A DNA stretch of 64,000 bases, taken from assembly GCA_003522725.1 (NCBI GenBank), contig DPIG01000078.1, forward strand, positions 18,746 through 82,745, written 5' to 3'. A program made the position numbers and the translations under genes. This DNA comes from Candidatus Omnitrophota bacterium. GTDB taxonomy: Bacteria; Omnitrophota; Gorgyraeia; Zapsychrales; Zapsychraceae. Below, piece after piece: positions 12,108 to 30,066 of this stretch (position 1 is its first letter; every line of letters begins with the position of its first letter). A model generated the notes under the pieces. It saw only the letters and a program-made list of their open reading frames with translations, did not search any database and was not told where the DNA came from.

Positions 12108-12589
12108 TGGTTGATCTCCACGTTGAGCTTCGCCGAATTAAACGCGGCGAGCAAAAGTTCCAGCGCGACCTTCACGTCCGAAACAAGATATTTGTTGCCG
12201 TAGCGAACTAACGTCGGCGCCAATTGCACGGCTTTGTAACATAGTTTGCATGCTTCCAGAGGGACTTCCCTTGCCTTGCGCCGGGCCGCGTTACGCTTCG
12301 CGGGCGCGGCCTTGCGCGTTTTGACAACGTTCAAATACGCCCGCGCGTCCAGGTCAACGAGCGCCAAAAAACGTTTGCGCAATCGCTCGCTCGTCTTGAG
12401 ACTTGCCTTTATCTTTTGTTCATTGGCACGCGATGAGGTCTTACCGAGCGAATAATTCGCGACCATGGACAGAAGCGCCGCCCCAAGCGCCGCCGTCACC
12501 GCCGCCGCCGACCCACCCCCCGGCGCGGGGACCTTGAGCGAGAGCACGCGCGTGTATTCACTTAAACTGTAATTTCGAAAGGGTTTCAT
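12104..12589 (-). CDS. Cyclodeaminase/cyclohydrolase family protein (FTCD C-terminal-like; FchA-type methenyl-THF cyclohydrolase)
   Basis: GGGSAAAVTAALGAALLSMVANYS motif typical of the formiminotransferase-cyclodeaminase C-domain. Overlaps folD by 4 nt (ATGA). Confidence 0.7.
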   Translation of the reverse strand: MKPFRNYSLSEYTRVLSLKVPAPGGGSAAAVTAALGAALLSMVANYSLGKTSSRANEQKIKASLKTSERLRKRFLALVDLDARAYLNVVKTRKAAPAKRNAARRKAREVPLEACKLCYKAVQLAPTLVRYGNKYLVSDVKVALELLLAAFNSAKLNVEINQ

Positions 12590-12597
12590 GGCTGTAA

Positions 12598-12674
12598 GGT
12601 TATCCGATTGTCCGGAAATCCGTGACTGGGTAATCCGGATACCCGGGTATCCGGTTCCTCGGATCCCCGGAACC
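12598..12674. repeat. Array A of degenerate 8-10 bp direct repeats (NNATCCGG type)
   Basis: GGTTATCCG ATTGTCCGG AAATCCG...GTAATCCGG ATACCCGG GTATCCGG TTCCTCGG ATCCCCGG, ending in the inverted GGTTCC...GGAACC. It lies between fchA and the Abi gene. Confidence 0.6.
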
Positions 12675-12716
12675 TGTCAATTTTCACATGCGCTCATCAT
12701 ATCCTAAACACGACGG

Positions 12717-13487
12717 TTATTCAACTTCAAAGGCGTTTTTATCGTGTATCTTTTTCTTCCGAGATTCCCATGTTTGAAAAAGGAATGTAGCCATCGTCCC
12801 GGAAAGATTAACTGCAAGTTCCGCATGCCGTGGTGCTGGCCGGCTCCCTGATACCCCTTTGCCATGCGCATCACTATGTCGGTTTCGTAAAGCGCCTAAT
12901 CCTTCAACGACACTCTGGCAACCACCCAATATCTGTTTAAAAATTTGCTCTGTATGTTGGCTCGGTGAAAGATTAAGCTGTCTGACGGTCAAAGTGTAAA
13001 GTTTGGGGAGGTCGACATCATTGCTATATGTTATGCCTGACTCATCAAGTATATGCTTGCATGCAGATTCAAGCAGCGTGCGAGCTGTTGTAATCGCACC
13101 CTCAGGGTCAGCAGCTCTGCGTTCTAATGCTTTTTGCCAAATTTCTTGAATGTAGGTTGAATCCAAAGTCTGCACAGTTGCGGAAATTGAAGCGTCGCTT
13201 GGCGTGCGTGAATCGGTTTCTAGTGTAGTCAGGAGCGGATCAAACTCTTGCTGTAAGTACCCTCTTCGTTGAGCATAGGTTGCGAATTTCGGCTGAATGA
13301 AACTCCAGAATTCAGAAAGGTTGCGACATGTGTGGACAAAACGAGGTAGTAGCTTTGCAATACGCGGAGATGTAATAAGTTCACGACGTAAATTTTTGTA
13401 TTCCAAGTCGTCACCGTTACCACCGGTCGCATGTGAAACTAGCATTATCTTCAGTGATTCAACTTGATTAATTTTTTCTTCATTCAT
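12717..13487 (-). CDS. Abortive-infection-like protein with a C-terminal HEPN (Abi_C-type) domain
   Basis: The C-terminus (TLLESACKHILDE...LPKLY...LGALRNRHSDAHGKG...RHAELAVNLSGTMATFL) fits the Abi_C/HEPN pattern, with an Rx4H motif (RHSDAH). The gene is visibly AT-rich compared with its neighbours. 256 aa. Confidence 0.65.
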   Translation of the reverse strand: MNEEKINQVESLKIMLVSHATGGNGDDLEYKNLRRELITSPRIAKLLPRFVHTCRNLSEFWSFIQPKFATYAQRRGYLQQEFDPLLTTLETDSRTPSDASISATVQTLDSTYIQEIWQKALERRAADPEGAITTARTLLESACKHILDESGITYSNDVDLPKLYTLTVRQLNLSPSQHTEQIFKQILGGCQSVVEGLGALRNRHSDAHGKGVSGSRPAPRHAELAVNLSGTMATFLFQTWESRKKKIHDKNAFEVE

Positions 13488-13490
13488 GTC

Positions 13491-13597
13491 GTATTATTCC
13501 GCGTTATTTCGGGCGTCTTTGTATTATTCCGGGGACGCGTACTCTCTCTGCGTTATTCCGGCGTTATTCCGCAGGTTATTCCGAGGTTATTCCGGGG
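13491..13597. repeat. Array B: seven copies of the (G)TTATTCCG(G) repeat, the last four in tandem with an 11-12 bp period
   Basis: TATTATTCCGCG GTTATTTCGGG...TATTATTCCGGGG...CGTTATTCCGGCG TTATTCCGCAG GTTATTCCGAG GTTATTCCGGGG. It lies immediately 5' of the Abi gene start. Confidence 0.7.
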
Positions 13598-13710
13598 CCA
13601 CATGACGTAACCTTAATTATTGCCGATTGTGTGTCTTTGCAGACGCTTTAGCTAAGTTCCTGGCTTTGCGTTAATTATAAAACAAATCTTTCACTTCGTG
13701 TTGAGTATTT

Positions 13711-13745
13711 CGGCCCCGCTGTAAGTGGCCCCCGGGCCGCTTTTT
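13711..13745 (+). terminator. Possible plus-strand intrinsic terminator with no plus-strand gene upstream
   Basis: CGGCCC...GGGCCG stem (6 bp, GC-rich, alternative pairings possible) followed by CTTTTTG. The minus-strand complement has no U-tract. Confidence 0.3.
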
Positions 13746-13806
13746 GAATTCGTGATTTTAACATAATTTGAATTCTCGCCGTTCGGCAAGAATTGACTTT
13801 ACAGCT

Positions 13807-14028
13807 TTAACGATAGCTGGCGTGTGTGCCGATATCGTAATAAATCACCTCGTGGGCGTTGATGAAACGAAACAGCACACGGTACTCCCGATTAATGGAA
13901 TACGCCCAATAGTCTTTCAGCGGTCCCTTAAGCTTGTGCGTTCGCAGGGGCGGTGTAAAAGCGTTGTCCCGGAATAACTGGTCTTTCTTGATGGCCAGGT
14001 CTTGAATATGTGTTGGGAGTTTCTGCAC
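13807..14028 (-). CDS. RelE/HigB/YafQ-like mRNA-interferase toxin, N-terminally short, no cognate antitoxin evident
   Basis: LKGPLKDYWAYSINREYRVLFRFINAHEVIYYDIGTHASY matches the conserved C-terminal half of HigB/YafQ-type toxins. The only start is a GTG and the frame closes 6 codons upstream. No HTH antitoxin ORF in the 300 bp downstream. Confidence 0.5.
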   Translation of the reverse strand: MQKLPTHIQDLAIKKDQLFRDNAFTPPLRTHKLKGPLKDYWAYSINREYRVLFRFINAHEVIYYDIGTHASYR

Positions 14029-14075
14029 AATTTGAACTCCCGATAGTCAGCGGAAATCTGGATTTCTAAGGTCTT

Positions 14076-14327
14076 CTAATAGACATCTTTACGATGGCCG
14101 ACGTGCAGAATGACCACCTTTTTATCCCGGTCATGGATATCGTAAATAACGCGGTAACGCCCGACACGGATCCTCCAGCCGGGACGGGCGATCAGCTTCT
14201 TGCTGCCGTGAGGGCGCGGGCTGGAAGAAAGTTTTTCGATATGCTGGCATACACGCTGATAATCAACGGCAGGCAGTCCGGCGAGCTCTTTTTGCGCGCG
14301 GCGAAGGATAAAAACGCTGTAGTTCAT
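14076..14327 (-). CDS. relE: Type II toxin, RelE/ParE family
   Basis: IRVGRYRVIYDIHDRDKKVVILHVGHRKDVY C-terminal signature. 83 aa. Overlaps the upstream antitoxin by ATGA. Confidence 0.8.
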   Translation of the reverse strand: MNYSVFILRRAQKELAGLPAVDYQRVCQHIEKLSSSPRPHGSKKLIARPGWRIRVGRYRVIYDIHDRDKKVVILHVGHRKDVY

Positions 14328-14527
14328 TTGCGGGAGCGTTCAATTTCTTTTCTGGCTTGGGCGAACGGGATGGATTCCTCGCCGGACGCCTTGGCCGCGT
14401 CATAAGCTCGGATGGACTCGAGCTCTTCAGCCTGCCTGATGAGTCGGCGATATTCCCTGTTGGTCAGGACGACCCCCACCTGGCGGCCATGGGAATCAAC
14501 AACATGATTCTCTTTTATTTTAATCAT
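14324..14527 (-). CDS. Type II antitoxin, Phd/YefM-like
   Basis: MIKIKENHVVDSHGRQVGVVLTNREYRRLIRQAEELESIRAYDAAK... Start placed at ATG 14525-14527, preceded by AAGGAG. The ORF-track TTG start at 14554 is less likely. Confidence 0.7.
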   Translation of the reverse strand: MIKIKENHVVDSHGRQVGVVLTNREYRRLIRQAEELESIRAYDAAKASGEESIPFAQARKEIERSRK

Positions 14528-14636
14528 GGGCACTCCTTTTTTCAAAAGTTTCAAAGGTCATCCCTTTGGTGAATGACTCGACTTTTTCAATGGCATCGAC
14601 AATATCGGCGACATAATCCCGGTATTGACGGATCAT
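14520..14636 (-). pseudogene. Remnant (38 codons) of a HepT/HEPN toxin gene, truncated where the Phd start codon begins
   Basis: Minus-strand translation MIRQYRDYVADIVDAIEKVESFTKGMTFETFEKRSAHD* matches the conserved N-terminus of HepT (DUF86) toxins. Its ATG overlaps the MNT stop (ATGA), the typical MNT-HepT coupling. The frame is cut by a TAA that overlaps the Phd ATG. Confidence 0.6.
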
Positions 14637-14926
14637 ACGTAAACAACCTCACGCATGATGTATTTACCGATAGTAGGCTTTAACGAACCTTTCATGACGA
14701 GATCAACGCGTTTTTTCAATATGGCGCTAAGGCGGTTTTCCGTCCGGACATAATCGAAAAGGCCGGGGGTCTGGCTGAATTCAACGAGGATGTCGACGTC
14801 ACTGTTCTTTTTTTGCTTTCCACGCACGTAGGAACCAAAGACACCCAGCATCTTGACCTTGAATTGTCGCTTCAGGGCGGATTTGTTCTGTTTTAAAACT
14901 TGTTTGATTTTATCCAGTTCGCTCAT
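14633..14926 (-). CDS. Minimal nucleotidyltransferase (MNT) antitoxin of a HepT/MNT pair
   Basis: GVFGSYVRGKQKKNSDVDILVEF is the GS...DxD pol-beta-type NTase motif. About 97 aa. Alternative TTG start at 14932. Confidence 0.75.
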   Translation of the reverse strand: MSELDKIKQVLKQNKSALKRQFKVKMLGVFGSYVRGKQKKNSDVDILVEFSQTPGLFDYVRTENRLSAILKKRVDLVMKGSLKPTIGKYIMREVVYV

Positions 14927-14992
14927 AGTCAAAGTATATCATAATTATCTGCCTGCCGATGAAAGCATTTTTACGTTTTTCGGGCTGTTTTT

Positions 14993-15014
14993 GGTTATTC
15001 CGTGGTTATTCCGG
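14993..15014. repeat. Array C: two tandem copies of GGTTATTCCG(G)
   Basis: GGTTATTCCGT GGTTATTCCGGG, immediately 5' of the MNT gene and adjoining the 15013-15054 inverted repeat. Confidence 0.6.
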
Positions 15015-15054
15015 GACACAATACTTAACTCACAGCAATTAAGTATCGTGTCCC
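15013..15054. repeat. 16-bp near-perfect inverted repeat spanning the symporter stop codon
   Basis: GGGACACAATACTTAA-(10 nt)-TTAAGTATCGTGTCCC, one mismatch. No U-tract on either strand. A related half-site lies at 22793-22815. Confidence 0.6.
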
Positions 15055-16295
15055 TCTTGCGGGAGCCATTTCGGCCCGTTCATGACGCGCGCGACGAGCA
15101 TGCCGCTGACGTTATCGCCCACCACGTTGACCATGGTCGCCGGCGGGTCAACGAGCGTGCCCACCATGGTGATAATGGGCATGGCCTCGATGGGAAAACC
15201 AAAGAGCGTGATGATCAAAAGCTCCCCCAGCATACCGCCGGAAGGGATGCCGCTGATGACCGTGCCGCATAAAAGGGCCACGGCCACAACCGAGACCAGC
15301 GTTTCAACGCCGGAAAAGGGCATGCCGAAGATCCCGAACAATAACGCCATCTTCACGACCGCGGCCAGGCTCGAGCCGTCGCTGTGCACCGAGGCGCCGA
15401 TATTGACCACGACCTCCCGCACGTCTTCGGGGATGCCGATTCTTTTCGCGGCCTCAAGGTTGACCGGCAAGGTCGCCAGCCCGCTCCCCGTCCCCCACGC
15501 GGTCACCGCGGCCGGAAGGATATTGGACCAAAGGAGCCGGATGCCCCGGACCCCTCCCGCCAGCCACGCGTAGAAAGAAAATCCGATAAAAAAATACGCC
15601 AGCGCCAGGGGATAATAGAGCGCGATCACACGGACATACGACCCTAAAAGCTGCGGGCCGAAGACGCCGACCAGATACGCGAAGTACGCGCCCAGGCCGA
15701 CGGGCGCGTAGAGCATGACGTAGCCGATGGCCCTGGTCATCACGTCGTTGCCCGCCGCGAGAAATTGCGCGAAGGGTTTCCCCCTCGCCCCAACGGCCGA
15801 GGCCGCCAGCCCGATCAGGAACGCGAACAGGATCAGGGCGAACATGTTCTGTTTGGAGAATAATTCCGTAAAGTCCGTGACCGTGAGGGTGCGCACGATC
15901 TGCTCGCCGATATCGACCTTTTCGGCCTGGACGGGCTGGTTGAAAGCGATCCGGATGCCTTCCGCGGGCGGATAGAACTTGACACCGACGATCATCACGG
16001 CCGCGGCAATGATCCCGGTCACCACAAATATCAGGACCATCCACCCCATGATCTTGCCCAGGCGTTTGACGTCCGTCATTTGGGCCACGGTCGAGGAAAT
16101 GGCGAAGAAGACCAGCGGTACGACGATCGTGAACAACAGATTAAGGAAGATGTCCCCCAGAGGCTTGAGGACGGCGGCGTTCGATTTCATCAGCGCGCCG
16201 ACCAACGAGCCGACGGCGATGGATGCGATAAGAAGAATCGAGAAACGATAGGATTTCAGAAAGGTTGGTTTATTATTCATACGTATGGCCGCCAT
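15039..16295 (-). CDS. Dicarboxylate/amino acid:cation symporter (DAACS/GltP-SstT family)
   Basis: Polytopic protein of 418 aa with the family hallmarks (GASVHSDGSSL..., GIPSGGMLG..., re-entrant loop motifs). Alternative start at Met6. Confidence 0.8.
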   Translation of the reverse strand: MAAIRMNNKPTFLKSYRFSILLIASIAVGSLVGALMKSNAAVLKPLGDIFLNLLFTIVVPLVFFAISSTVAQMTDVKRLGKIMGWMVLIFVVTGIIAAAVMIVGVKFYPPAEGIRIAFNQPVQAEKVDIGEQIVRTLTVTDFTELFSKQNMFALILFAFLIGLAASAVGARGKPFAQFLAAGNDVMTRAIGYVMLYAPVGLGAYFAYLVGVFGPQLLGSYVRVIALYYPLALAYFFIGFSFYAWLAGGVRGIRLLWSNILPAAVTAWGTGSGLATLPVNLEAAKRIGIPEDVREVVVNIGASVHSDGSSLAAVVKMALLFGIFGMPFSGVETLVSVVAVALLCGTVISGIPSGGMLGELLIITLFGFPIEAMPIITMVGTLVDPPATMVNVVGDNVSGMLVARVMNGPKWLPQEGHDT

Positions 16296-16304
16296 TGGAT
16301 AATA

Positions 16305-17237
16305 TCAGGATTTTGCATAGACCGGCAACAAAAATGACGAAAAGTAATCTATCCCCGGGGTCCGGGCCTTTATTTCCAGTTCCCAATACTTCGCCGGTCG
16401 GCAGCTCAGACAGGAATTGTACCGGGACTCCTGGGGAAGCGAAAAAGCCAGGGGCCACTGGGCCGCTTGCTGCTCAAAAGCCGTCAGGTTACTTAAGGTC
16501 AACGTGTCCGCGTAAAGCTGGTAGGAAACGACCACGGACTTTCTGTTCTTGCCGCTGCCGCGCGTCTCATATTTTTCTTCAATATGACGCAAGGTCACCG
16601 TCATCTCTTTTAATCCCGCGACCGGCTTGTTCGTGCGCAAGATGACCTTTAGGTCTTCCCCCAGGAAAAACGGACAATGCTGGAATTCGAGCGAGCTCAC
16701 CCCATATTTCAAAAGGGCCAAGACGAGGTATATCCAATACGCCCAGGCGGTCACAATGATGACATCGAAGAAGCCGATAAATAATTGAAAAATTCCGTCG
16801 GGATGTTTGACAAAGAACATCCAGTTAAACGGCGCGATGAATACCATAAAGCCCAAATTGGCATAAAGGCCGGCTTTGACTTTTTGCCATGAGTCCGCCT
16901 TGATCCCTTGCGGGTCCCAGGGATAATCAGCGCGCCATTTTTCCGCGGGGTATTGCTGGTTTAAAAGCGCGGTTTTTCTTTTTTCACTTAAGCTAAGCAA
17001 GCCATGTATCAGCGTCAAGAGGCCTGCCAGCGCGAAGAGCCCACCGAAGCCGGCGGCCACCTCACGCGCGGCATGGAAACTTGAATCTTTGACCGGGATC
17101 ACGTCCAAAGAAATGAGGATTATAAATGTTCCCACGCCGATAAACGGCAGGCTGAAAAAGACCGCCGGCCAGCCCTCAACGGTCGTGCGGCTGATGGTGG
17201 AATGTCCCCGGAGCTCTTTGCGTTGAAGGTCGGTCAT
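16305..17237 (-). CDS. Hypothetical integral membrane protein (about 4 TM segments plus a soluble C-terminal domain)
   Basis: Clean 310-aa ORF with hydrophobic segments. No family recognised by eye. Confidence 0.5.
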   Translation of the reverse strand: MTDLQRKELRGHSTISRTTVEGWPAVFFSLPFIGVGTFIILISLDVIPVKDSSFHAAREVAAGFGGLFALAGLLTLIHGLLSLSEKRKTALLNQQYPAEKWRADYPWDPQGIKADSWQKVKAGLYANLGFMVFIAPFNWMFFVKHPDGIFQLFIGFFDVIIVTAWAYWIYLVLALLKYGVSSLEFQHCPFFLGEDLKVILRTNKPVAGLKEMTVTLRHIEEKYETRGSGKNRKSVVVSYQLYADTLTLSNLTAFEQQAAQWPLAFSLPQESRYNSCLSCRPAKYWELEIKARTPGIDYFSSFLLPVYAKS

Positions 17238-17258
17238 GATTTATTTATCGTACCCTCT

Positions 17259-19154
17259 TTATGGCCGTGCGGCAACGAGGAAATTCGCGCTGCCCGGGGG
17301 TTTCACGTAAGAAAGCGTGCTTTTGCCTAACGCGACTCCGCCTAATTTCTGGATCGCCGCGATATGCGCCGGATAGATTTTGTCATGGACAAAATAGTTG
17401 AAAAATCCTTCCGGCGTGGAAACGACCAGGAAATGATACCCCAGCCCCGCCAGCCGGGACAACTCGCCCGCGCGGTAGTGCGCGATGTCCCAGCGGTTGA
17501 AGAAATAATACGCCGGCGTGAAATAGAATTCTTTGAATCGCCGGGTCAGTTCCTCCTTGATTTGTTCCGGCGTGAACCCGGAAAGGTCCTGGGGGCCCAG
17601 CGTGGCCATGCCCCAGAGCCCGATGACCTCGGGCAGATGACGGTCGATCGCTTGCGGAAAATGCCGCCGGTGCATGAGATCCCCGGGAACAAGCGGGTCC
17701 AGAGGCGCGTAAGCCACCTCGGGGTTGGCGATGCCCAACAGGTCCAGAAGGTCATGTTCGGCAAAATACATCACGGTCGCCATCTCGGGGCTCGCGATGA
17801 CGGCGTGCGCGGGGAGCGTCAGGCGCAGATAACGTCCGAAAAATCCCAGGTCGTCGATCCGGCCCCAACGGTTGCGGGAAATGCGCAGGTCGTTGTAAAG
17901 CGTCTGAAACGCGTTGGGCGCCGGCCAGATGTACGGTGAAACGATGAGCGCCAGAGCGATTGCCGTCCGCGCGCCCTGATGGCGCACGAACGGCGTGACG
18001 GCTTTATAAATAAACGCCCACGCGCAGATCGTAAACAGCAGTGTAAACGGCATCAGATAACGGTTCCAGGGAAACGGAAACCAGTCTCCCCCGCCGGTAA
18101 AATAAAGCGAACAAAAAACAGCCGTCACGCCCAGAGGCAGGAAGATTTTCGAAGGCAGCAGTTTTTTATAAAAACAAAACCCGATCGGAATGACGCTCAA
18201 TAAGGCAAAGATGTGCGATTGAAAATACTGCAATAAAAACTGCAGCTGGCCCAACCCTGCCCGTAAATAAGCAGGGTCCCCCGCCGTATTCTTGAAAATG
18301 ACCGGCGCGGGGACAGGGTGCCCAAAGAAAAATTTGCGCGCCAGGGTCAGAAACGCGAACGGCGTCACCAGAAAAAGCCCTGTTCCCAAAGCTTTTTTCA
18401 GGGAGGGCCGTTCGAGGTAAAGGCAAAGCCACATCAGAAAGGTGAACACGATCCCTTCGATCCGCACCAGCGGCAGGAAGGCGAGAATGACCAGCCCGGC
18501 CCCGCGTTTTTCCGGCGGCGCGAAAGTCAGGAAATAAACGCTCAAAAGGACCAGGCCCGTGAATAATGTTGCCATAAACCCCGACCCGCCGACGAAGATG
18601 ACGCAAGGGAAAACGCCCAGGGCCAGCGTAAAGGCCAGGCATGCCGGTTCATCAACGACAAGCGCCCGCAGGATGAGCCATCCGGCGGCAATGACAAGTA
18701 CGTTTCCCAAAAGGGAAAAACAGACGGCGGTCTCGACTAAAGGAAAAGAAAGTTTGCCCAAAACCCCGGTCAGAAAAAACGGCAGAAAGTCGACCGTCCC
18801 TTCGGCCATATTCGCGGCGTTATAGCTGTAATGTCCCGCGTGGGTGAGGACGTAGGAATGCCGCAGGTTGATGAAGAATTCATCCCAGCCTTCGCTGACC
18901 TTCAAGCTTAAAAGGACCGACAGAAACGCGATGAGCCCCAAGGACAGGTTTTGCCAGAACAACGGCCGCATCCGCCGGCGAAAAAATGCCAATCCGGCAA
19001 GCGCAAAGATCATGCCGGCCGCGGCCGGAAGAACGGGACGGGTCTGGATCAAGGACAGCATCCCGCCGAAGAATTCATTGACCGGAGGGGTGACGGGGAG
19101 AAAATCGTTGACGCGGAAAATTTCAAGATCAAGGATCTGCGGTGTGTCGCCCAT
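17259..19154 (-). CDS. Large polytopic membrane protein, putative GT-C-fold glycosyltransferase (ArnT/PMT/YfhO-like)
   Basis: 631 aa, about 12 predicted TM helices in the N-terminal two-thirds, then a soluble C-terminal domain. Sits in a cluster with a DPM1-like GT2 gene. Assignment is by architecture, not a recognised motif. Confidence 0.45.
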   Translation of the reverse strand: MGDTPQILDLEIFRVNDFLPVTPPVNEFFGGMLSLIQTRPVLPAAAGMIFALAGLAFFRRRMRPLFWQNLSLGLIAFLSVLLSLKVSEGWDEFFINLRHSYVLTHAGHYSYNAANMAEGTVDFLPFFLTGVLGKLSFPLVETAVCFSLLGNVLVIAAGWLILRALVVDEPACLAFTLALGVFPCVIFVGGSGFMATLFTGLVLLSVYFLTFAPPEKRGAGLVILAFLPLVRIEGIVFTFLMWLCLYLERPSLKKALGTGLFLVTPFAFLTLARKFFFGHPVPAPVIFKNTAGDPAYLRAGLGQLQFLLQYFQSHIFALLSVIPIGFCFYKKLLPSKIFLPLGVTAVFCSLYFTGGGDWFPFPWNRYLMPFTLLFTICAWAFIYKAVTPFVRHQGARTAIALALIVSPYIWPAPNAFQTLYNDLRISRNRWGRIDDLGFFGRYLRLTLPAHAVIASPEMATVMYFAEHDLLDLLGIANPEVAYAPLDPLVPGDLMHRRHFPQAIDRHLPEVIGLWGMATLGPQDLSGFTPEQIKEELTRRFKEFYFTPAYYFFNRWDIAHYRAGELSRLAGLGYHFLVVSTPEGFFNYFVHDKIYPAHIAAIQKLGGVALGKSTLSYVKPPGSANFLVAARP

Positions 19155-19886
19155 TTAGATCTTGATGTTCAATTTTTCGAATTCCCTGATCCTGGCGAAG
19201 GAATAAAAAGAATAATACCGGTCGTTCTCGACCAGGAAAGCCTTGAGACGGCAGCCCTTAAGGACAAGTTCATTATAGACGGGGGCGATGTAGTAGATCC
19301 CGTTGACGTGGGCTTGCTTTTCGATGGTTTTCTCGGCGGCCTCGATGAAGTCGCGCCCCCGTTTGAAGTAGTAGAGCCCGGCGATGGCATGACGGCTGAT
19401 GGGGTTTTTTTCGGCGGTCTGCAGGATCGTCCGGTCGGCGTCGAGCTTCGCGTAGGACCATTGCGGATGCACGGAATCAAAACAGACCACCCCGCCGTCG
19501 ACGTCCTGGTCGAGGAAATATTTCAAAAGGACGTTGTAGTCGATATCCAGATACTGGTCGGCGTTGGAGATGATCAAAGGCGAATCGTTGTTGATGTGAT
19601 CGATCGCGAGAAGACAGGAACAGGCCGCGCCTTTGGTCTCGGTCTGCTGGCGGATGATCACGGTGTCCCTGCCGGTCAGGAGCTTGAGGGTCTTGTCGAG
19701 ATGGAATTTGACGCATTCGTCCTCCCTGGCAACGAAAACGAAACGTTTCGTTTCCTGGATGCGGTTTAACGCGGTCAGCGGGTATTCGATCATGGTCCGG
19801 TCATTGATCTCAAAAAGCGGTTTGGGAAAGAACTGGTCTTCGAAGATCCTGGATTTTCCGGCGATGGGAATAAGGATATTGATCAC
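19155..19886 (-). CDS. Sugar-phosphate nucleotidyltransferase-like protein (NTP_transferase/GT-A fold), paralog 1
   Basis: MINILIPIAGKSRIF...PKPLFEINDRTMIEYPL N-terminal nucleotide-binding motif. GTG start. 243 aa. Paralogous to 21899-22654. Confidence 0.6.
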   Translation of the reverse strand: MINILIPIAGKSRIFEDQFFPKPLFEINDRTMIEYPLTALNRIQETKRFVFVAREDECVKFHLDKTLKLLTGRDTVIIRQQTETKGAACSCLLAIDHINNDSPLIISNADQYLDIDYNVLLKYFLDQDVDGGVVCFDSVHPQWSYAKLDADRTILQTAEKNPISRHAIAGLYYFKRGRDFIEAAEKTIEKQAHVNGIYYIAPVYNELVLKGCRLKAFLVENDRYYSFYSFARIREFEKLNIKI

Positions 19887-20521
19887 GCGCCTGCCCCCGC
19901 GTCGATCTCTGTGACGCGCTCGATAATGTTGTCGTAATACACGTCTTTGGGGTCTTTCACCTCCAGGAGATGCGCGCCGCTTTCCCGCGCGGCCTTGATG
20001 CCCTGCGGGTTATCTTCAACGATCAGGCACTCGGCGGGCGAAAGTCCGAAGCGCGAGATGGCCTTTTGGTACATCTGCGGGTGCGGCTTGTGGTGTTCCA
20101 CGTCTTCGTTGGAAAGGAAAAATTCCAGATGCGGCATGAGGTCCGCTTTGCGCAGCATCAGGTCAATGGTGTCCCGCACGGAATTGGAGCACACGGCCAG
20201 CCTGTACCCTTCTTTTTTCAGCCGCGAAAGCGCGTACTGGTGGATGAACTGCGGCTTGCATTTGAGCGTGATCTCCTCAAGCGTGTATTGCTGCTTGAGG
20301 CGGCAGATAAAATCGTGCAATTCGTGCGGCAGGCTTTTTTCGATGGACAGCATCTCGAGTTTTTTGCGGGTCGGAAAGCCGTCGTAGGTCGTCACATGTT
20401 CCAGGCGGCTCAGGCTCATGCCGAAATAGTCCAAAGCCCGGTTGAGGGCCGCGTAATGCCATTCCTTGGCGTCGATGAGGACCCCGTCCATGTCAAAAAT
20501 GACCGCCTTTATCTTCCCCAT
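19883..20521 (-). CDS. HAD-superfamily hydrolase, subfamily IA (phosphatase / beta-phosphoglucomutase-like)
   Basis: VIFDMDGVLID motif I, then S/T motif II, K motif III and a VEDNPQGIKAARESG motif IV region. 212 aa. Confidence 0.8.
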   Translation of the reverse strand: MGKIKAVIFDMDGVLIDAKEWHYAALNRALDYFGMSLSRLEHVTTYDGFPTRKKLEMLSIEKSLPHELHDFICRLKQQYTLEEITLKCKPQFIHQYALSRLKKEGYRLAVCSNSVRDTIDLMLRKADLMPHLEFFLSNEDVEHHKPHPQMYQKAISRFGLSPAECLIVEDNPQGIKAARESGAHLLEVKDPKDVYYDNIIERVTEIDAGAGA

Positions 20522-20522
20522 T

Positions 20523-21161
20523 TTACTCCTCGGTGTTGAAAAAATCGTCCGCCTTGGCCGGAAAGTCGGTGCACAAGAACAACTGCTGTTGATGGCGGCG
20601 CAACGCGGGGTTTTTTAACAATCGCCAGAGACGCTCATGTCCGCGTCCGTGCAGTTCCGGTGAAACCACACAAACATCTTTGCCCGATTTCAAATGTTCT
20701 TCGATGGTACGCGCTGTGAACCAGTCGGTTTTAAATGAGTCCAGCCAAACTCCCGCGGCGTGTTCCCACAAAACCGGCCGTGGTTCAAATTCGCTTTGCC
20801 GGGTGAAAAACGGGATTTTACGGTCGCGATAAACAACCAGTTCCGGGATATTGGCATCAAAGACAAAATAATGACGCACCCGGTAACGACGCGCCAGACT
20901 CTGGATCAGACCTTGCAGGCCGTCGGCCTTGACGTTGATGGCCAGCGTTTGGTCTTTGATGTTCCGGGCAAAAAGTTCAAAGACCTTTTCGGCGCCGGGA
21001 TTTCGCCTGGATGCCGGATCATGCGCGATGACCAGCTTTCCTCCGGAATCGCGTACGTCCGTTTCAACACCAAACCCCATTTTAGCGGCCCGGCGAATGG
21101 CCGGAAAGCTATTTCTTTCTTTTTTCGACCGCCAATTCCCGCGGTGCGCCAGGATGTGCAT
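20523..21161 (-). CDS. Glycerophosphodiester phosphodiesterase (GP-PDE) family protein
   Basis: ILAHRGN...GFGVETDVR...LVIAHD, the H-R...E-D catalytic signature of GDPD. 212 aa. Confidence 0.7.
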   Translation of the reverse strand: MHILAHRGNWRSKKERNSFPAIRRAAKMGFGVETDVRDSGGKLVIAHDPASRRNPGAEKVFELFARNIKDQTLAINVKADGLQGLIQSLARRYRVRHYFVFDANIPELVVYRDRKIPFFTRQSEFEPRPVLWEHAAGVWLDSFKTDWFTARTIEEHLKSGKDVCVVSPELHGRGHERLWRLLKNPALRRHQQQLFLCTDFPAKADDFFNTEE

Positions 21162-21170
21162 ATAAAAATC

Positions 21171-21884
21171 CTACGGGTAAAGCCGTTTGAGCTGGAACAT
21201 CTGCTCCAGCGTGGTGCGATAGACGTTCACGCGTTTGCGCGACCAGCTGGACACGCCCTGACGCCGGGCGTGAAAAGCCACGGGCACCTCATGCACGGGC
21301 CAGCGGTTCTTGCGCGCCGTCAAAAGCAATTGCGCGTCGAACACGAACGTTTTCATTTTAGTACCCGGCAAGAAATTTAAAAGATCTTTGTGGAACATTT
21401 TCGGCAGGCCGTTGACGTCTTTGACGCGCACTCCCAGAAGGATATTGGCCAGGACAGTATAAATGACGCTGACGACACGCGTGTTCCATCCGTCTTCACG
21501 GACCGTGCGCCGGCCTTTGACCATGACCCTGTTTTGGCGTTGCGCACAAGCGGCGCGGTATCGCTCCCAGACTTTTAAAAGATCACCGGCGCTGACCTGC
21601 AGATCGCCGGGGATGTACGCGACGATGTCCGTCCGGCAGTGTTTGAGCCCTTCATAAACGCCGCCGCCGTAATTGAGATTTTCGGGAAGATGGATACCCC
21701 TTATCCAGGAGTTTTGTTGCGCGAGATCATCGACGACCGCCCCCGTCCGGTCCGTTGAGCCGTTGTTGACCAGGATGACCTGGGACAAACCGTTCTGGAG
21801 AAGACCGCTCGCGACCAAGTCGCGGACCAACAACGGGACATTCTTCTCTTCGTTCCACAAAGGGACAACCAGGCTGAAATCCAT
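21171..21884 (-). CDS. GT2 glycosyltransferase, DPM1/ArnC-like polyprenyl-phosphate sugar synthase catalytic domain
   Basis: MDFSLVVPLWNEEKNVP...ILVNNGSTDRT...YIPGDLQ (DxD-like). 237 aa, no C-terminal TM anchor. Confidence 0.7.
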   Translation of the reverse strand: MDFSLVVPLWNEEKNVPLLVRDLVASGLLQNGLSQVILVNNGSTDRTGAVVDDLAQQNSWIRGIHLPENLNYGGGVYEGLKHCRTDIVAYIPGDLQVSAGDLLKVWERYRAACAQRQNRVMVKGRRTVREDGWNTRVVSVIYTVLANILLGVRVKDVNGLPKMFHKDLLNFLPGTKMKTFVFDAQLLLTARKNRWPVHEVPVAFHARRQGVSSWSRKRVNVYRTTLEQMFQLKRLYP

Positions 21885-21898
21885 TTTTTTCGATCCCT

Positions 21899-22654
21899 TC
21901 AGAAAGATACGGCCTTGCGCGCGACCGGCAGGCCGAGAAAACGCTCCAGGTCCTGCGGCGTCCCCAGCCCGTACATGCCTTCGGTGTCGCTGCCGATATT
22001 GACGTAGCCGATCCTTTTGTCTTCCTGGAGCAGTTCATTAAACGCCGGCGCGACATAAAATTCGTTGTTGACCCGCAGGTTCTTGCGGATCATGCCCTCG
22101 GCGCCGCGGACAAAATCCTTTCCGCGGCGATAATTGTAAACACCCACGGTGGCTTCGTCGGACACGGCTTGTTTCTCAACCACTTCGGTGATTTCTCCGC
22201 GTTCATCAAGCCGGACGAACGACCACTTGGGGTCGGTGGCGGTCATCGTGAGGATCGCCCCGTCCCAGGACGACGCGTCAAACGTCTGTAAATAATCTTC
22301 AATGGAAAAATCGACCCACTGGTCGGAATTGGCGAGCATCAGCGGCTGGTCGGTGCCGATGAGATCTTTGGCCAGAAGGACCGTGCATGCAGCGCCTTGC
22401 GTGATCGACTCCACGGTCACGATGCGGCAGCCGGGGGCCAGTTTTTTCAATTTTTGGTCGATGCGATAATTTTCGAGATGCTCTTTAAGGCATAAAAAAA
22501 TGAACCTGTGCGGGCGTTTGGGACGGAGATTATGGACCACCAGTTCGATCATGGCCTTGCCGTGGACCTCGATGAGGGGTTTGGGCAGGGTATAACCCGC
22601 TTCCTGAAAGCGGCTGCCGCGCCCGGCCATGGGGATAACGATATTAAGGGTCAT
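21899..22654 (-). CDS. Sugar-phosphate nucleotidyltransferase-like protein, paralog 2
   Basis: MTLNIVIPMAGRGSRFQEAGYTLPKPLIEVHGKAMIELV aligns with the paralog-1 N-terminus. Start uncertain (candidates at 22654, 22663, 22666). The ORF track extends to 22690. Confidence 0.6.
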   Translation of the reverse strand: MTLNIVIPMAGRGSRFQEAGYTLPKPLIEVHGKAMIELVVHNLRPKRPHRFIFLCLKEHLENYRIDQKLKKLAPGCRIVTVESITQGAACTVLLAKDLIGTDQPLMLANSDQWVDFSIEDYLQTFDASSWDGAILTMTATDPKWSFVRLDERGEITEVVEKQAVSDEATVGVYNYRRGKDFVRGAEGMIRKNLRVNNEFYVAPAFNELLQEDKRIGYVNIGSDTEGMYGLGTPQDLERFLGLPVARKAVSF

Positions 22655-22726
22655 GTGCGCCATCATAACCCAAACCCCGCGCCATTTCAATCAAACCGGC
22701 AACAATTTATGGCTGGTTCAAAATAT

Positions 22727-22750
22727 CAATTCGGTCAACGTTGACCGAAT
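22727..22750. promoter_or_regulatory. Perfect 24-bp palindrome between the GH5 gene stop and the nucleotidyltransferase start
   Basis: AATTCGGTCAAC|GTTGACCGAATT. On the minus strand it is followed by GATATTTTGAA. It could be an operator site or a terminator stem. Confidence 0.5.
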
Positions 22751-22792
22751 TCAGACAGACCCGGACATGAGCTTGGGGCGATCCCGGAAGGT

Positions 22793-22815
22793 CCCGGGAA
22801 TAAGTACTGTGTCCC
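22793..22815. repeat. Half-site related to the 15013-15054 inverted repeat, fused to an inverted TTATTCC(C)GG unit
   Basis: CCCGGGAATAAGTACTGTGTCCC. The TAAGTAcTGTGTCCC part matches TAAGTATcGTGTCCC (15040-15054) at 13 of 15 positions. CCCGGGAATAA is the reverse complement of TTATTCCCGGG. Confidence 0.5.
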
Positions 22816-22818
22816 ACT

Positions 22819-25800
22819 TTATTGCAGGATCCTGGTATAGTTCGCTTCATGGTCTTTGACCCATATGCCGTTGACCTTGGACCAGATGGACGCGTAAAGC
22901 GGTGTGCCATCCAGCGGGACGGTCACGGTGACGGAAGTATTTGATCCCGCATTGATATTGCCGACGTTTTTCGTGTTGGGAGCGGTCCCCAGCCACAGAT
23001 AATACTGCGCTGCCGCCGGATTCGTCGTCCAGATGAACGTTACGTTCGCCGTATCGATCTGGCTCCCCGGCGCAGGTGAAATGATCCGGGCCCGTTGGTC
23101 GGCGCGGGTATAGCTCACTTCATGATCTTTGACCCATATGCCGTTGACCCTGGACCAGATGGACGCGTAAAGCGGTGTGCCATCCAAGGGGACGTTTACA
23201 ATTACCGAAGTATTCATTCCGGCATTGATGTTACCGACGTTGTTGATGCTTGGAGCAGTACCCAACCACAAATAATACTGTGTTGCCGCGGGATTTGCCG
23301 TCCAGGCAAACATCACGCTAGTGGTCGTGATCTGACTGCCGGGTACGGGCGAAGTGATCAGGGCTTTTTTGTTACTGCGCGTATAACTTGCTTCATGGTC
23401 TTTGACCCATATGCCGTTGACCCTGGACCAGATGGACGCGTAAAGCGGTGTGCCATCCAGCGGGACGGTCACGGTGACGGAAGTATTTGATCCCGCATTG
23501 ATATTGCCGACGTTTTTCGTGTTGGGAGCGGTCCCCAGCCACAGATAATACTGCGCTGCCGCCGGATTCGTCGTCCAGATGAATGTTACGTTCGCCGTAT
23601 CGATCTGGCTCCCCGGCGCGGGCGACATGATCCGGGCCCGTTGGTCGGCGCGGGTATAGCTCACTTCATGGTCTTTGGCCCATTTCCCTTTGACTTTGGA
23701 CCAGATGGACGCGTAAAGCGGTGTGCCATCCAGCGGGACGGTCACGGTGACGGAAGTATTTGATCCCGCGTTGATATTGCCGACGTTTTTTGTGTTGGGA
23801 GCGGTCCCCAGCCACAGGTAATATTGCGTCGCGTCGGGATTCATTGTCCAGCGGAAGGTCACGTTCGCCGTATCGATCTGACTGCCCGGCGTGGGCGACA
23901 TGATCCGGGCCGGCCCTTTAACCGAAAGATATCCCTCGAGGATCCCCGTTAAGGAAATATTAGGTGAATGATGGGCCGCGGTATCGTATTTGCCGAATTT
24001 TTGTTCCAGCTGGACTTGGGAATCCGTGCTGACGTCGGGCGGCGCGTCATTGTAGACGTCATGCATAAACAAACCCCACTCGGTGGGGTATTGCGTCTGG
24101 TGCGCCTTGTACGTCCACATCGCCCAGTGCCAGTTTTTATTGCGGAATGTCGCCAAAAAATAGTCCCAGTTGGCCCGCTGATTGAAGCCGTTGAATTCGC
24201 CGATGAAGACCGGCACGTTGAAGATTTCCTGCGCGGAATTGTTCACCTTGCCGTCGAGGTACGCGCGGTGTCCGGGGACGTCTTTAATGCCGATGATATT
24301 TCCAAAACTGTCGAATTCGAACCCGTAATAATGGAATTCGTAGACGACATTTTGCCAGCCGTAAACGTTGGGGTGCGGAAGGGTGTCCCAGTCGAATTCG
24401 CTGGGGACGCTTTCCATGACAATGATGTGCCTGGGGTCAACCGCGCGGATCGCCTGATAGAGCGCGTTATAAAATGGCCAAAGGCCGGCGGGCCCGGTGA
24501 AGGTCGGGTCGTGGTCCAAGGCGCCAAAAGGTTCATTCAAAAGATCATAACCCATGACATTGGTCAAAAAAGCGTAACGTGACGCGACCGCCGTCCAGAA
24601 TTCGATGGTCTTGGCGCGGTGCGCGGCGCCGTCAGGGCCGTTCTCGAAAAGTTTGTTGTAGTTCGCGCGGCCGGAATGCGCCTCGTCGCTTTGCGCCCCC
24701 GGCGCGCCGTGAAGGTCCAACAGGACGTAGATCCCGCGGTTGGCGCATTGCTCGATGATCCAATCCAGTTTGGTGAAGTTTGTGAACGCGCCGGTTGAAT
24801 CTTGCAGGGCTTCATAATAAATCGGCAGGCGGACCAGATTGACGCCCATACGCATCAAGTGGTCCAGATCGATCGTTTGGATATACGCGTCCTGATACGC
24901 GTTAAGAAGATTTGCCGACCCGAACCTGCGGACCAATTCCGCGCGGATGCTGAAGTCGTCATCATCGTTTGGGTTCGCGGCGGTGTACCCGCCTCCGATC
25001 CCGGTAAATTCCGGCTCGATCAATAACAGGTTCCCCAGATTGACGCCCCCCAGGAGGATCGGATCACCAAGGCCATCCATTTCCAGGATAGCCATGCCGT
25101 CCGTCTTGAGATACCCGCCTTCGAGGGAAGTGACCGGCAATGCCGGGCTCCAACCGGTCGAATCGAAGATGTCCGTTAATCCGGTCCTTAAATGCGCGCG
25201 GATGCGGTACCATGAGCCTTCTTCATAATAACTCGCGGCTGGCAGCAAAGCGTGCGGGCCGCGGTATATTTCCGTCCAGGGCCCGTTACGGGACGGGCCT
25301 TTCTGGATCTCATACTGGTCGGCGAACTCGAGCGGTTCCCACTGCAATCCGGCAAAGGCGAACCTTGGATGGCGAAGCAAGACCGGAGGACGGAGCGAAT
25401 AAACAACCTCGCTCCATCGCGAAATATAGGGGATCGGGTCAGTGGAGGTGACGTCCTCTTTCCAGCGGACCCGCAGCCACCGTGGGGACAAAGGTTTGAT
25501 AAAAGAAGAAAGGCCCGTCCCCTCGTAAATGGTCGTCCATGGTCCCTGCGGTCCCGCGACGCTTTCCTGCAATTCGTACGCGCCCGCGCCGGCAATCGCG
25601 TCCCACGCCGCGGCCACTCCCTGGGCCGATTCTGAAACAACGACGGTCGGCGGTGTTTTAATGGCCCTGATATCATCGATGTAGTAAACTCCGGGCCAGA
25701 AAAACTGGAACTGGATCTTGTTGATGCCGCTGAGGTCCAGGCCGGCGGGTAATCCGCTAAAGGGAACGGCCAGTTGTGTCCATTGCCCGCGCACCGCCCG

Positions 25801-26688
25801 TTTGGTCGTCCAGACAACGACCGGGTCCACAAAATGGTCGCCGTTATCGAAAAATTGCACGCCGACATTGCTGTCCAGCCCGTTTGCCGCGAGCGCGTAA
25901 ACCCAGAAGGTCAGCCGGTCGTTTTGCGCGGGGTTAAGATCCACGTTCCAGGGCGTCTGCTGGTCGGGCGGGACGAATTTATTTTCCTGCGACTGGATGC
26001 CGGTGCCTGCCCAGTTGGCGGTGGTGGTCAATTTCCAGGATTGTGTCCCTTCATAGACAACGTTTCGTTCCAGAGCGACCGTCCCGTCCCACGCCCAGCC
26101 GCAATCGCCGGGCGAAACGCAGCGTTCGAAGGCCTGATAAATCCGGTCATCCAGAACAACGTTGAGATCGTCCAGATAATACGTCCCTGGCCAATAGTTG
26201 ATGAATTCGATCTTGTTGATATGCGTGAGGTCGAAGTTCGCCGGCAGCTGACTGAACAAAACGGTCAACCGGGTCCACTGCGCGAAACGCGCGGTTTGTG
26301 CGGTCCAGACCTCAAAGCCGTTATTGAAATAATTAGTTGTGTCGAAGAATTTCACGCCGACGTTATTGTTGTTGCCTTGCGACGGCAGGGCGTAAACCCA
26401 GAACGTGAGGCGGTCGTTGCGTTGCGGCTGGAAATCCATGTCCCAGCGCTGGGTCTGCGACTGGATCCTTGTTCCTCCCCAAAAATCGGGCGCCTGGACC
26501 TTCCAGGAGCGTGCGCCGGAATGGACCTGCGCGCTGGAAGGGGTGACAACGGCGGCGTTAAATCCCCAGCCATATTCATCGGACCCGTTGGCGGGTTCGA
26601 AATCCTGGTAAATGGCGCCGGCCATGGCCGCGGTCGCGGTCAATAAAAGGACAACGCTCGCCGACAAGATATTCAATGACCGTTTCAT
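22819..26688 (-). CDS. Secreted multidomain glycoside hydrolase family 5 protein with N-terminal beta-sandwich repeats, Fn3-like modules and five C-terminal 91-aa repeats
   Basis: Signal peptide MKRSLNILSASVVLLLTATAAMA. Two ~170-aa N-terminal repeats (NDRLTFWVYAL...NVGV.FFD...YWPG.YY.DD). GH5 catalytic region with NEP acid/base (GYDLLNEP) and GEFN nucleophile (FIGEFNGF). Five tandem repeats (SP.PGSQI.T..V.F.WT.NP.A.QYYLWLGTAP...NVGNINAG.NTSV.V.VPLDGTPLYASIWS.V.G.W.KDHE.SYTR). 1289 aa. Confidence 0.8.
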   Translation of the reverse strand: MKRSLNILSASVVLLLTATAAMAGAIYQDFEPANGSDEYGWGFNAAVVTPSSAQVHSGARSWKVQAPDFWGGTRIQSQTQRWDMDFQPQRNDRLTFWVYALPSQGNNNNVGVKFFDTTNYFNNGFEVWTAQTARFAQWTRLTVLFSQLPANFDLTHINKIEFINYWPGTYYLDDLNVVLDDRIYQAFERCVSPGDCGWAWDGTVALERNVVYEGTQSWKLTTTANWAGTGIQSQENKFVPPDQQTPWNVDLNPAQNDRLTFWVYALAANGLDSNVGVQFFDNGDHFVDPVVVWTTKRAVRGQWTQLAVPFSGLPAGLDLSGINKIQFQFFWPGVYYIDDIRAIKTPPTVVVSESAQGVAAAWDAIAGAGAYELQESVAGPQGPWTTIYEGTGLSSFIKPLSPRWLRVRWKEDVTSTDPIPYISRWSEVVYSLRPPVLLRHPRFAFAGLQWEPLEFADQYEIQKGPSRNGPWTEIYRGPHALLPAASYYEEGSWYRIRAHLRTGLTDIFDSTGWSPALPVTSLEGGYLKTDGMAILEMDGLGDPILLGGVNLGNLLLIEPEFTGIGGGYTAANPNDDDDFSIRAELVRRFGSANLLNAYQDAYIQTIDLDHLMRMGVNLVRLPIYYEALQDSTGAFTNFTKLDWIIEQCANRGIYVLLDLHGAPGAQSDEAHSGRANYNKLFENGPDGAAHRAKTIEFWTAVASRYAFLTNVMGYDLLNEPFGALDHDPTFTGPAGLWPFYNALYQAIRAVDPRHIIVMESVPSEFDWDTLPHPNVYGWQNVVYEFHYYGFEFDSFGNIIGIKDVPGHRAYLDGKVNNSAQEIFNVPVFIGEFNGFNQRANWDYFLATFRNKNWHWAMWTYKAHQTQYPTEWGLFMHDVYNDAPPDVSTDSQVQLEQKFGKYDTAAHHSPNISLTGILEGYLSVKGPARIMSPTPGSQIDTANVTFRWTMNPDATQYYLWLGTAPNTKNVGNINAGSNTSVTVTVPLDGTPLYASIWSKVKGKWAKDHEVSYTRADQRARIMSPAPGSQIDTANVTFIWTTNPAAAQYYLWLGTAPNTKNVGNINAGSNTSVTVTVPLDGTPLYASIWSRVNGIWVKDHEASYTRSNKKALITSPVPGSQITTTSVMFAWTANPAATQYYLWLGTAPSINNVGNINAGMNTSVIVNVPLDGTPLYASIWSRVNGIWVKDHEVSYTRADQRARIISPAPGSQIDTANVTFIWTTNPAAAQYYLWLGTAPNTKNVGNINAGSNTSVTVTVPLDGTPLYASIWSKVNGIWVKDHEANYTRILQ
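22822..24186. repeat. Five tandem 273-bp DNA repeats inside the GH5 gene; copies 1, 2 and 3 are nearly identical
   Basis: GACCCATATGCCGTTGACC... recurs at 22858, 23131 and 23404 (period 273). Long runs of nucleotide identity are visible between 22850-23090, 23120-23360 and 23400-23640. Copies 4 and 5 are diverged. Confidence 0.8.
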
Positions 26689-26706
26689 GGTTTTCCCTGG
26701 ATCAAA

Positions 26707-28181: not shown

Positions 28182-30066
<1,885 letters not shown>

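Follow-up and report, generated by a model that had tools for sequence, protein, structure and literature searches.

A predicted single-gene abortive infection protein of the Abi_C (HEPN) family in a hypervariable island of an Omnitrophota genome

SadR of Staphylococcus aureus (Kondo et al., Nat Commun 2026), the best characterised of three stand-alone Abi_C proteins backed by experiments, is among the closest described counterparts of the gene analysed here, a 256-amino-acid Abi_C-family (abortive infection) open reading frame (ORF) within a 64,000-nucleotide stretch of Candidatus Omnitrophota bacterium DNA (GCA_003522725.1, contig DPIG01000078.1, positions 18,746 to 82,745; hereafter the window). 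SadR is a 266-amino-acid protein with an Abi_C domain only, carrying the motif RNEYGDAH; it degrades single-stranded and total RNA, not DNA or double-stranded RNA, migrates at ∼66 kDa on native polyacrylamide gels as an apparent dimer, and loses ribonuclease (RNase) activity and defence with each of the substitutions R225A, N226A and H232A (PMC13590631). Encoded by a single chromosomal gene, it confers protection against both phages and plasmids, and an escape mutation maps to a single-strand-annealing protein (SSAP) (PMC13590631).

AbiJ (Abi-859) of Lactococcus lactis is also a single-gene abortive infection system, whose escape mutations fall in a phage SSAP (PMC13064643), and Taranis, a single-gene Abi_C defence cassette of the Vibrio cholerae chromosomal integron, has demonstrated anti-phage activity and an N-terminus described as distantly related to AbiJ_NTD5 (bioRxiv 10.1101/2024.07.02.601686). 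RNase-active HEPN domains are defined by an Rx4-6H motif together with a second conserved element, Ex3[KR]; AbiJ-NTD5 has been described as a mostly helical domain of ∼100 amino acids, at times following a DnaG-type zinc ribbon, and ‘solo’ AbiJ-family proteins in restriction-modification (R-M) operons were already noted in 2013 (PMC3710099). Another HEPN RNase, the anticodon nuclease PrrC of the EcoprrI locus, combines tRNA-Lys specificity with activation by Stp and binding to the R-M system.

The window gene is an ordinary member of a large, already annotated defence family in an unusual host, and its locus suggests no new kind of system. We consider it probable that its product is an autonomous abortive-infection RNase of the Abi_C (AbiJ/SadR/Taranis) kind. 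The gene and its parts are as follows.

12717–13487, minus strand: abortive infection (Abi_C) gene, a complete ORF of 256 amino acids with an ATG start and its stop codon at 12717–12719.
13167–13487, minus strand: N-terminal domain (residues 1–107), a compact all-helical bundle in the predicted structure, proposed as a sensor or regulatory module.
12753–13166, minus strand: predicted HEPN (Abi_C) RNase domain (residues 108–245).
12864–12887, minus strand: predicted catalytic motif R201-N202-R-H-S-D206-A-H208 (RNx3DAH, within the HEPN Rx4-6H class), read from the sequence.
13056–13070, minus strand: second HEPN signature E140-S-A-C-K144 (Ex3[KR]), with E140 and K144 invariant in 61 sequences.

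A two-domain Abi_C protein

A preliminary description of the window, made from its sequence alone, had placed an AT-rich ORF at 12717–13487, and both statements stand, the coordinates being better than those of the gene callers. We take the start to be the ATG of the 256-amino-acid ORF, and not the gene-caller start M15, because residues V9-E10-S11-L12-K13 (VESLK) are invariant across the close clade in the family alignment, where homologues also share the query's first methionine. P0001, a 242-amino-acid protein of 100% identity, is the window's own product as called from M15 by metagenome gene callers. The ORF has a GC content of 44.4% (window, 54.0%), and its GC content at third codon positions (GC3) is 36.6%, whereas folD, which flanks it, has 79.1%, a difference that points strongly to horizontal acquisition; this copy was acquired horizontally and is now isolated on an Omnitrophota chromosome, within a hypervariable island. 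Rho and PolA of the window belong to protein clusters that bear the name Candidatus Omnitrophota bacterium. The locus is found again on several metagenome contigs from groundwater, and the identical protein occurs on 8 metagenome contigs from several groundwater datasets, with 5 of these places examined. No NCBIfam model matches the whole 256-amino-acid protein, and no solved structure is detectable for it by sequence, even with the family profile.

The C-terminal half matches Pfam Abi_C (PF14355) at residues 161–237 (E = 7.1e-24; 84.2 bits against a cutoff of 24; profile positions 1–82 of 83) and the PADLOC AbiJ profile (PDLC02347) at residues 98–239 (profile positions 135–276 of 281; E = 3.6e-23), and is confidently predicted to form a HEPN-type alpha-helical up-down bundle; HepT toxins, LsoA, Csm6 and AbiV rank lower among its matches. 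In an alignment of 61 diverse members, 39–80% identical to the query, the positions that never vary are R34, P48, T133, E140, K144, D206 and H208, and conservation is 90% or more at R201 and N202; RNxxxDAH recurs in 235 of 281 proteins compared, of which 270 are family members. Within the motif RNRHSDAH (residues 201–208), N202 is the polar residue that the HEPN Rx4-6H motif requires after its arginine, and LAVNLSGTMATF (residues 224–235) lies within the last helix. Read against the published definition, the predicted RNase-active HEPN signature, Ex3K plus RNx3DAH, is complete. Solely from the biochemistry of SadR (PMC13590631), we infer that the protein is an endoribonuclease whose dimer forms a composite active site.

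These results bear out the Abi_C/HEPN half and the conserved C-terminal helix of the preliminary description, and the HEPN fold that it had proposed looking for in a predicted structure was found with confidence. Its Rx4H motif had been counted from the non-conserved R203; the conserved spacing is Rx6H from R201. The label ‘AbiJ/Swt1-like’ survives in part, in that the AbiJ profile does match, and needs correcting in that it matches the C-terminal half only and that AbiJ and Swt1 are separate HEPN clades (PMC3710099). The reading as a HEPN abortive-infection RNase gains support from the Abi_C match, the two sequence signatures and the family annotation; the contrary outcome that had been envisaged, placement in an unrelated housekeeping family, gave way in profile searches to the Abi_C or abortive infection family.

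The N-terminal 107 amino acids are confidently predicted to form a helical bundle, for which no specific structural relative was found and in which no ATPase domain was detected. Pfam searches at E ≤ 1 returned no family for the first ∼107 residues of the query and no consistent match for the N-domains of 50 diverse family members, the Pfam AbiJ_NTD models, understood to cover NTD3, NTD4 and NTD5, matching none of them. Conserved positions in this domain include G22, Y30, R34, P48, W61, Y71 and R74, mean identity is lower than in the HEPN half (38% versus 56%), and phrog_23253 spans both (residues 8–244; E = 1e-72). Judged by these alignments, both halves are conserved together across a very large family; the HEPN half is found after different N-termini as well, with matches among representatives and plasmids that in some cases start only at about residue 85–95. 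The N-domain thus appears undescribed yet conserved in thousands of full-length homologues, and not peculiar to this locus. The earlier remark that some 120 N-terminal residues match nothing holds as regards Pfam, where the suggested search with both halves gives Abi_C for one and no match for the other, and fails as regards the conservation of the domain. In P0149 an Hsp70-like fragment precedes the same N-domain, and in P0135 a DnaG-type CHC2 zinc ribbon does so, an arrangement compatible with the published NTD5 description.

An exhaustive HMMER scan found 3,912 clusters at the 50%-identity level with E ≤ 1e-3 (519 with E ≤ 1e-30), and a search of 90% clusters found 5,030 homologues. Apart from P0001, the best 120 homologues are 70–81% identical over their full length and come from unrelated phyla, and with clustering at 50%, full-length alignment holds for nearly all of the 150 top representatives; the PGAP name of homologues is ‘abortive infection family protein’. 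Members of the family were found on 201 plasmids and in 41 of 5,426 complete Escherichia coli genomes; a Pseudomonas conjugative plasmid has its copy next to a type III R-M system. In one E. coli genome (locus L110; NZ_AP022222.1, 3526394–3545194), a 253-amino-acid member, ∼50% identical to the query, is a lone accessory gene ending a satellite-like island. That island, which has the major capsid gene of a prophage as its insertion site, holds genes for an integrase, a TIR protein, an Icd-like protein, a primase, a single-stranded DNA-binding protein (SSB), a capsid protein and a small terminase.

By its published description, and not by full-length sequence, SadR resembles the window protein in being the product of a single gene, in size (266 versus 256 amino acids), in its C-terminal Abi_C/HEPN domain and in having no recognisable N-terminal Pfam domain. 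RNEYGDAH and RNRHSDAH are both R-N-x3-D-A-H, SadR R225, N226 and H232 being the equivalents of the motif residues here, and RNEYGDAH itself occurs in none of the 281 proteins compared. SadR lies beside rlmH/SCCmec in Bacillota, whereas the query's clade, from Gram-negative phyla, occupies type I R-M operons, the query itself coming from Omnitrophota. The AbiJ profile has ∼130 N-terminal residues without counterpart here, so that half of the model is covered, and Pfam AbiJ_NTD3, AbiJ_NTD4 and AbiJ_NTD5 all fail to match the query N-domain; with its N-terminal 107 amino acids unmatched, the protein is not a full-length match to AbiJ sensu stricto. Taranis, compared by description only, is likewise a stand-alone Abi_C protein, but Pfam AbiJ_NTD5 misses the present family, and Taranis is an integron cassette whereas the genes studied here lie in R-M operons or are orphans.

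Type I restriction-modification loci of the close relatives

In order to compare genomic contexts, we assembled 57 loci from species-representative genomes and several metagenome contigs, with a locus search seeded by 13 close sequences, and screened them with HsdM, HsdS and HsdR queries and with Pfam on two ORFs on each side. Neighbours at 54 genome loci are heterogeneous, the commonest being HsdS, in 8 of the 101 ORFs scanned upstream, and Uma2, in 4. No universal partner family was found across these 54 loci; therefore, a single-gene system is supported, no partner gene being conserved across the family.

A different pattern holds in the clade at least 65% identical to the query, where 11 of the 13 genome loci have hsd genes or their remnants. 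At 8 of these 11, the end of the hsdS match is no more than 15 nucleotides from the Abi_C start, and at the closest-clade hsdS-abiC junctions the two are separated by a 3-nucleotide spacer or overlap by 4 nucleotides. All three long metagenome contigs have the order hsdM-hsdS-(TIR)-abiC-variable cargo-hsdR, the cargo consisting of SMODS plus S_4TM, an AbiEi-like pair, or DUF6088 plus Schlafen; in L019 there is none, and hsdR directly follows abiC. The position of abiC beside hsdS is constant although the cargo varies. This hsdM-hsdS-abiC arrangement is found in Verrucomicrobiota, in Beta- and Gammaproteobacteria and in Chlorobi, with protein identities of 65–81%. Among more distant full-length members (<60% identity), any hsd match occurs at 6 of 44 loci.

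Several close relatives have lost part of this block. At L111, which encodes the closest relative (P0003, 81% identical) and has a Fic-domain gene after abiC, and at L012, a mini-ORF lies 3 nucleotides upstream of abiC (L111 6821–6997; L012 9764–9997), in which an HsdM N-terminus (MHWxAPSEKD...LEKRLW) is joined to an HsdS C-terminus (NLRRTRDLLLPRLLSG). These mini-ORFs read as deletion scars from which hsdM and hsdS were excised and abiC kept. In L114, hsdM is split; abiC is intact at all three loci. As far as such junctions tell, orphaning of abiC arose independently and repeatedly, after loss of hsdM and hsdS.

The closest clade thus resembles PrrC in that the HEPN RNase gene of a type I R-M locus (type Ic for PrrC) lies between hsdS and hsdR. 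PrrC differs in its N-terminal ABC-ATPase regulatory domain, where the present family has a 107-amino-acid helical bundle, and in belonging to a distinct HEPN clade; the window copy moreover is without R-M genes within 64 kb.

The island around the window copy

No hsdM, hsdS or hsdR gene is detectable within the window, and neither tblastn nor blastn finds hsdS remnants upstream of its abiC. DNA homology to twelve relatives starts at the ATG and stops at codon 245, the flanks being without homology. In this comparison the window abiC appears as an orphan, whose stand-alone state is secondary to its clade's life in type I R-M operons; the earlier observation that it ‘sits alone’ is accurate for these 64 kb and describes a secondary state. 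The surrounding features are listed here.

12682–12741, minus strand: yraN-like (UPF0102) relic, consisting of that gene's 3′ end and the former spacer between yraN and FTCD_C, located by local alignment to L069.
12598–12675, minus strand: degenerate array of 8-nucleotide (CCGGATAC-like) units between abiC and FTCD_C, part of the FTCD_C upstream region.
13494–13594, minus strand: direct repeats of CGGAATAA[CT], six exact and one degenerate, ending 7 nucleotides before the ATG.
13807–14028: HigB/YafQ-like ORF, 5′-truncated relative to a 90-amino-acid version in L071.
14076–14554: intact Phd-like/ParE pair.
14520–14636: ORF of 38 amino acids after the MNT gene, weakly like the HepT N-terminus (E 0.066).
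14633–14932: MNT gene, the nearest MNT, 1.1 kb from abiC.

Family members normally end at about residue 245, and the window copy carries an 11-amino-acid C-terminal extension. The yraN relic supplies the last 7–8 codons of this extension (KNAFEVE plus the stop) and ∼35 nucleotides after it; tblastn places yraN residues 119–125 at 12720–12740 with an E-value of 5.6, which is meaningful only alongside the DNA alignment. At 26710–27084, 14 kb away, the window has its intact yraN. Whereas yraN and FTCD_C are adjacent in L069 (0 kb), they are 2.8 kb apart in L071, with other toxin-antitoxin (TA)-like genes in between; the distance is 3.7 kb in L072, and in the window it is 14 kb. From these alignments, the interval between the yraN-like gene and FTCD_C-folD (window 12590–27084) is a hypervariable hotspot in related Omnitrophota-like genomes, and the second yraN 3′ end and spacer at 12682–12741 looks like an att-type duplication. 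No integrase is found among the called genes in the 16.3–23.4 kb part of the interval, the sole part screened. An integron cassette with an attC site was considered for the ORF-precise insertion, and the GTTRRRY match, sought by eye only, is at chance level.

The HigB/YafQ-like ORF lacks the N-terminus and the upstream antitoxin found in L071. The MNT gene does not make abiC an MNT-HepT (HEPN/MNT, type VII TA) pair: it has its own HepT stub, albeit a weak match; the Phd-ParE pair and the HigB-like fragment separate it from abiC; no MNT partner exists across the Abi_C family; and the present protein has an extra N-domain, which HepT lacks.

Other elements of the hotspot are shared among relatives. 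An element of ∼94 nucleotides (window 13661–13754) is 87–88% identical in the hotspots of L072, L107, L073, L074, L071 and L070, and holds a strong terminator-like hairpin on the plus strand (13723–13742 plus a T-run), with no plus-strand gene before it. Another hairpin, at 13771–13794 just after the HigB-like stop, keeps its pairing through compensatory changes (TTGCCG..CGGCGA versus TTGCGGC..GCCGCAA at L071 ∼2925–2950) and is probably a conserved terminator or recombination site. Farther along, a tandem repeat of 273 nucleotides in 3.9 copies (81% matches) occupies 22834–23911 within a minus-strand ORF of 1,289 amino acids (22819–26688) and probably encodes repeated protein domains.

The repeat arrays said earlier to bracket the gene are real, and belong to the local genome, outside the defence system. 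In gene orientation, seven CGGAATAA[CT] units span 107 to 7 nucleotides upstream of the ATG, and two further CGGAATAA units precede the MNT gene (14995–15013). The string TTATTCCG occurs six times in 13494–13594 and 9 times in the window (3.3 ± 1.8 expected; none of 100 shuffles reaches 9), and Tandem Repeats Finder reports a period of 11 in 4.1 copies at 13550–13595. No comparable array exists upstream of 54 other family members, and the CGGAATAA array is absent from the same hotspot in the close relatives L069–L074; the FTCD_C-proximal array has a degenerate homologous counterpart only in L072, which has different cargo. Rfam gave nothing at the gathering threshold in the whole window and, in E-value mode over 12450–15150, one chance-level match elsewhere; the predicted RNA fold of the array region is no better than that of shuffled sequence (z = 0.36), and there is no terminator between array and ORF.

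A host-lineage regulatory role for the arrays was considered and rejected, with CGGAATAA absent in L069–L074 and the downstream array only degenerate in L072. On the mRNA strand the arrays are GGA-rich (CGGAATAAC, CCGGATAC) and lie just upstream of the abiC, MNT and FTCD_C transcription units, while the corresponding position in L072 is taken by a different array, of GGRATTAG; the window arrays might form a platform of CsrA type or one mimicking Shine-Dalgarno sequences, and no CsrA-like motif was found in the window. Other short-unit arrays also occur in the window, some as inverted pairs: the intergenic hairpins at 325–394, 27708–27765 and 29994–30062 are inverted arrays of 7-nucleotide units (AGTGGTC/CTGACCA; CGTATCT/GAGATACG), which this Omnitrophota genome appears to form throughout. 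We regard the arrays as a local, unexplained feature of this genome, for which no link to the gene family was found.

Autonomous defence, restriction-modification guard or passenger

In the autonomous reading, for which SadR supplies the mechanism, a HEPN-mediated dimer would bring two RNx3DAH motifs into one composite active site, as relatives and general HEPN biology suggest, and the N-terminal helical bundle would keep the RNase inactive in uninfected cells, as a sensor or an autoinhibitory module. Because escape mutations against both AbiJ and SadR fall in phage SSAPs, the infection-linked cue releasing the RNase may be recombination or replication intermediates, or the SSAP itself. The released enzyme would cut single-stranded cellular and phage RNA, so that translation stops and the infection is aborted, and plasmid establishment would probably be blocked as well. 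Ancestors would have stood third in a type I R-M operon (hsdM-hsdS-abiC) and been expressed from there, and the window copy, its R-M context lost, would have to rely on a promoter of its own. Autonomy is supported by the recurrent intact orphans, the plasmid copies and the copy in the E. coli satellite-like island, and the ORF is intact, with two domains and a confidently predicted HEPN fold.

Several observations weigh against autonomous defence. In the closest clade the coupling of hsdS to abiC is tighter than expected of random cargo, which hints at dependence on R-M. A PrrC-like guard would have its N-domain bound to the HsdM2S core or to the whole R-M complex, with the HEPN RNase latent until an anti-restriction protein resembling Ocr or Stp releases it, and the window copy would either be misregulated or rely on a type I R-M system that another part of the genome encodes. 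We think this unlikely, while recognizing what speaks for it: hsd genes or remnants at 11 of 13 close loci, with hsdS ending within 15 nucleotides at 8; the fixed place of abiC beside hsdS in all three long contigs; the spread of the arrangement across Verrucomicrobiota, Beta-/Gammaproteobacteria and Chlorobi; and a layout identical to that of prrC in EcoprrI, HEPN-R-M linkage having been proposed as multi-pronged defence (PMC3710099). However, intact orphans recur (L111, L012, L114 and the window), and they should be lethal or decaying if R-M were the sole brake; distant members mostly lack hsd neighbours (6 of 44 loci with any), the window holds no hsd gene, and the ABC-ATPase regulatory domain of PrrC is absent here. 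The more specific proposal of a compact, ATPase-less PrrC analogue, whose N-domain would monitor type I R-M integrity and fire on anti-restriction proteins, the orphans having been rewired to another cue or to a distant R-M system, is one to which we give equally little credence; if true, it would make the clade a widespread, cross-phylum ‘R-M guard’ module, with a sensor domain without described relatives.

Further observations count against the autonomous reading as it applies to this host. The stretch 13807–14932 appears from its ORFs to be a stack of TA modules, some truncated, and so partly a graveyard, and no sigma-70-like promoter is predicted upstream of abiC by a scan uncalibrated for Omnitrophota, which leaves its expression in the host putative. 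The gene might accordingly be a silent or decaying passenger, an ORF-precise fragment recently arrived in a recombination hotspot, promoterless, fused to a gene relic and non-functional in this host; homology confined to the stretch from ATG to codon 245, the vanished hsdS context, the C-terminus running into the yraN relic and a yraN-to-FTCD_C interval that differs in each close relative all fit such a view. We judge it distinctly improbable, since the frame is intact with all family-invariant residues kept, the identical protein recurs on 8 contigs from several groundwater datasets, and the limits of the promoter scan apply here too; selection would act against a HEPN toxin that is not controlled, and lesions should build up in a dead one, and neither is seen. 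The RNase chemistry of the family is also unsettled, since SadR depended on Mg2+ in vitro, an atypical trait among HEPN RNases, which are metal-independent, and for this subfamily and its N-domain an RNase or defence role would follow by analogy with characterised relatives. A type III-like TA system, in which the CGGAATAA array would be transcribed as a repetitive antitoxin RNA neutralising the HEPN toxin, as for ToxI/ToxN, AbiF and AbiV, has in its favour seven direct repeats immediately upstream on the strand of the toxin gene and the existence of HEPN toxins with RNA antitoxins, e.g., AbiV and AbiF (PMC13064643). The array reaches to 7 nucleotides before the ATG with no terminator in between, its motif also precedes the unrelated MNT gene, and short-unit arrays are common in this genome. 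Its units are only 11–12 nucleotides long, whereas those of known type III antitoxin RNAs are much longer (∼36 nucleotides in ToxI). We rejected a type III antitoxin or structured RNA in these repeats on the Rfam result, the fold (z = 0.36) and the absence of upstream arrays in all 54 other family members, and regard this explanation as very improbable.

The autonomous abortive-infection RNase is the reading we retain, and with it the window gene adds an Omnitrophota example, from a groundwater candidate phylum, to the family of Abi_C/HEPN proteins that defend as single genes, for which SadR and Taranis have only recently demonstrated activity. Its N-terminal domain is a conserved, unnamed module found in thousands of proteins. 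The nearest relatives share a conserved hsdM-hsdS-abiC block across several phyla, which repeatedly sheds its R-M genes and keeps the RNase gene intact, and this comparative pattern poses a testable choice, autonomous abortive infection or R-M guard, which is the sole question of wider interest raised by the locus.

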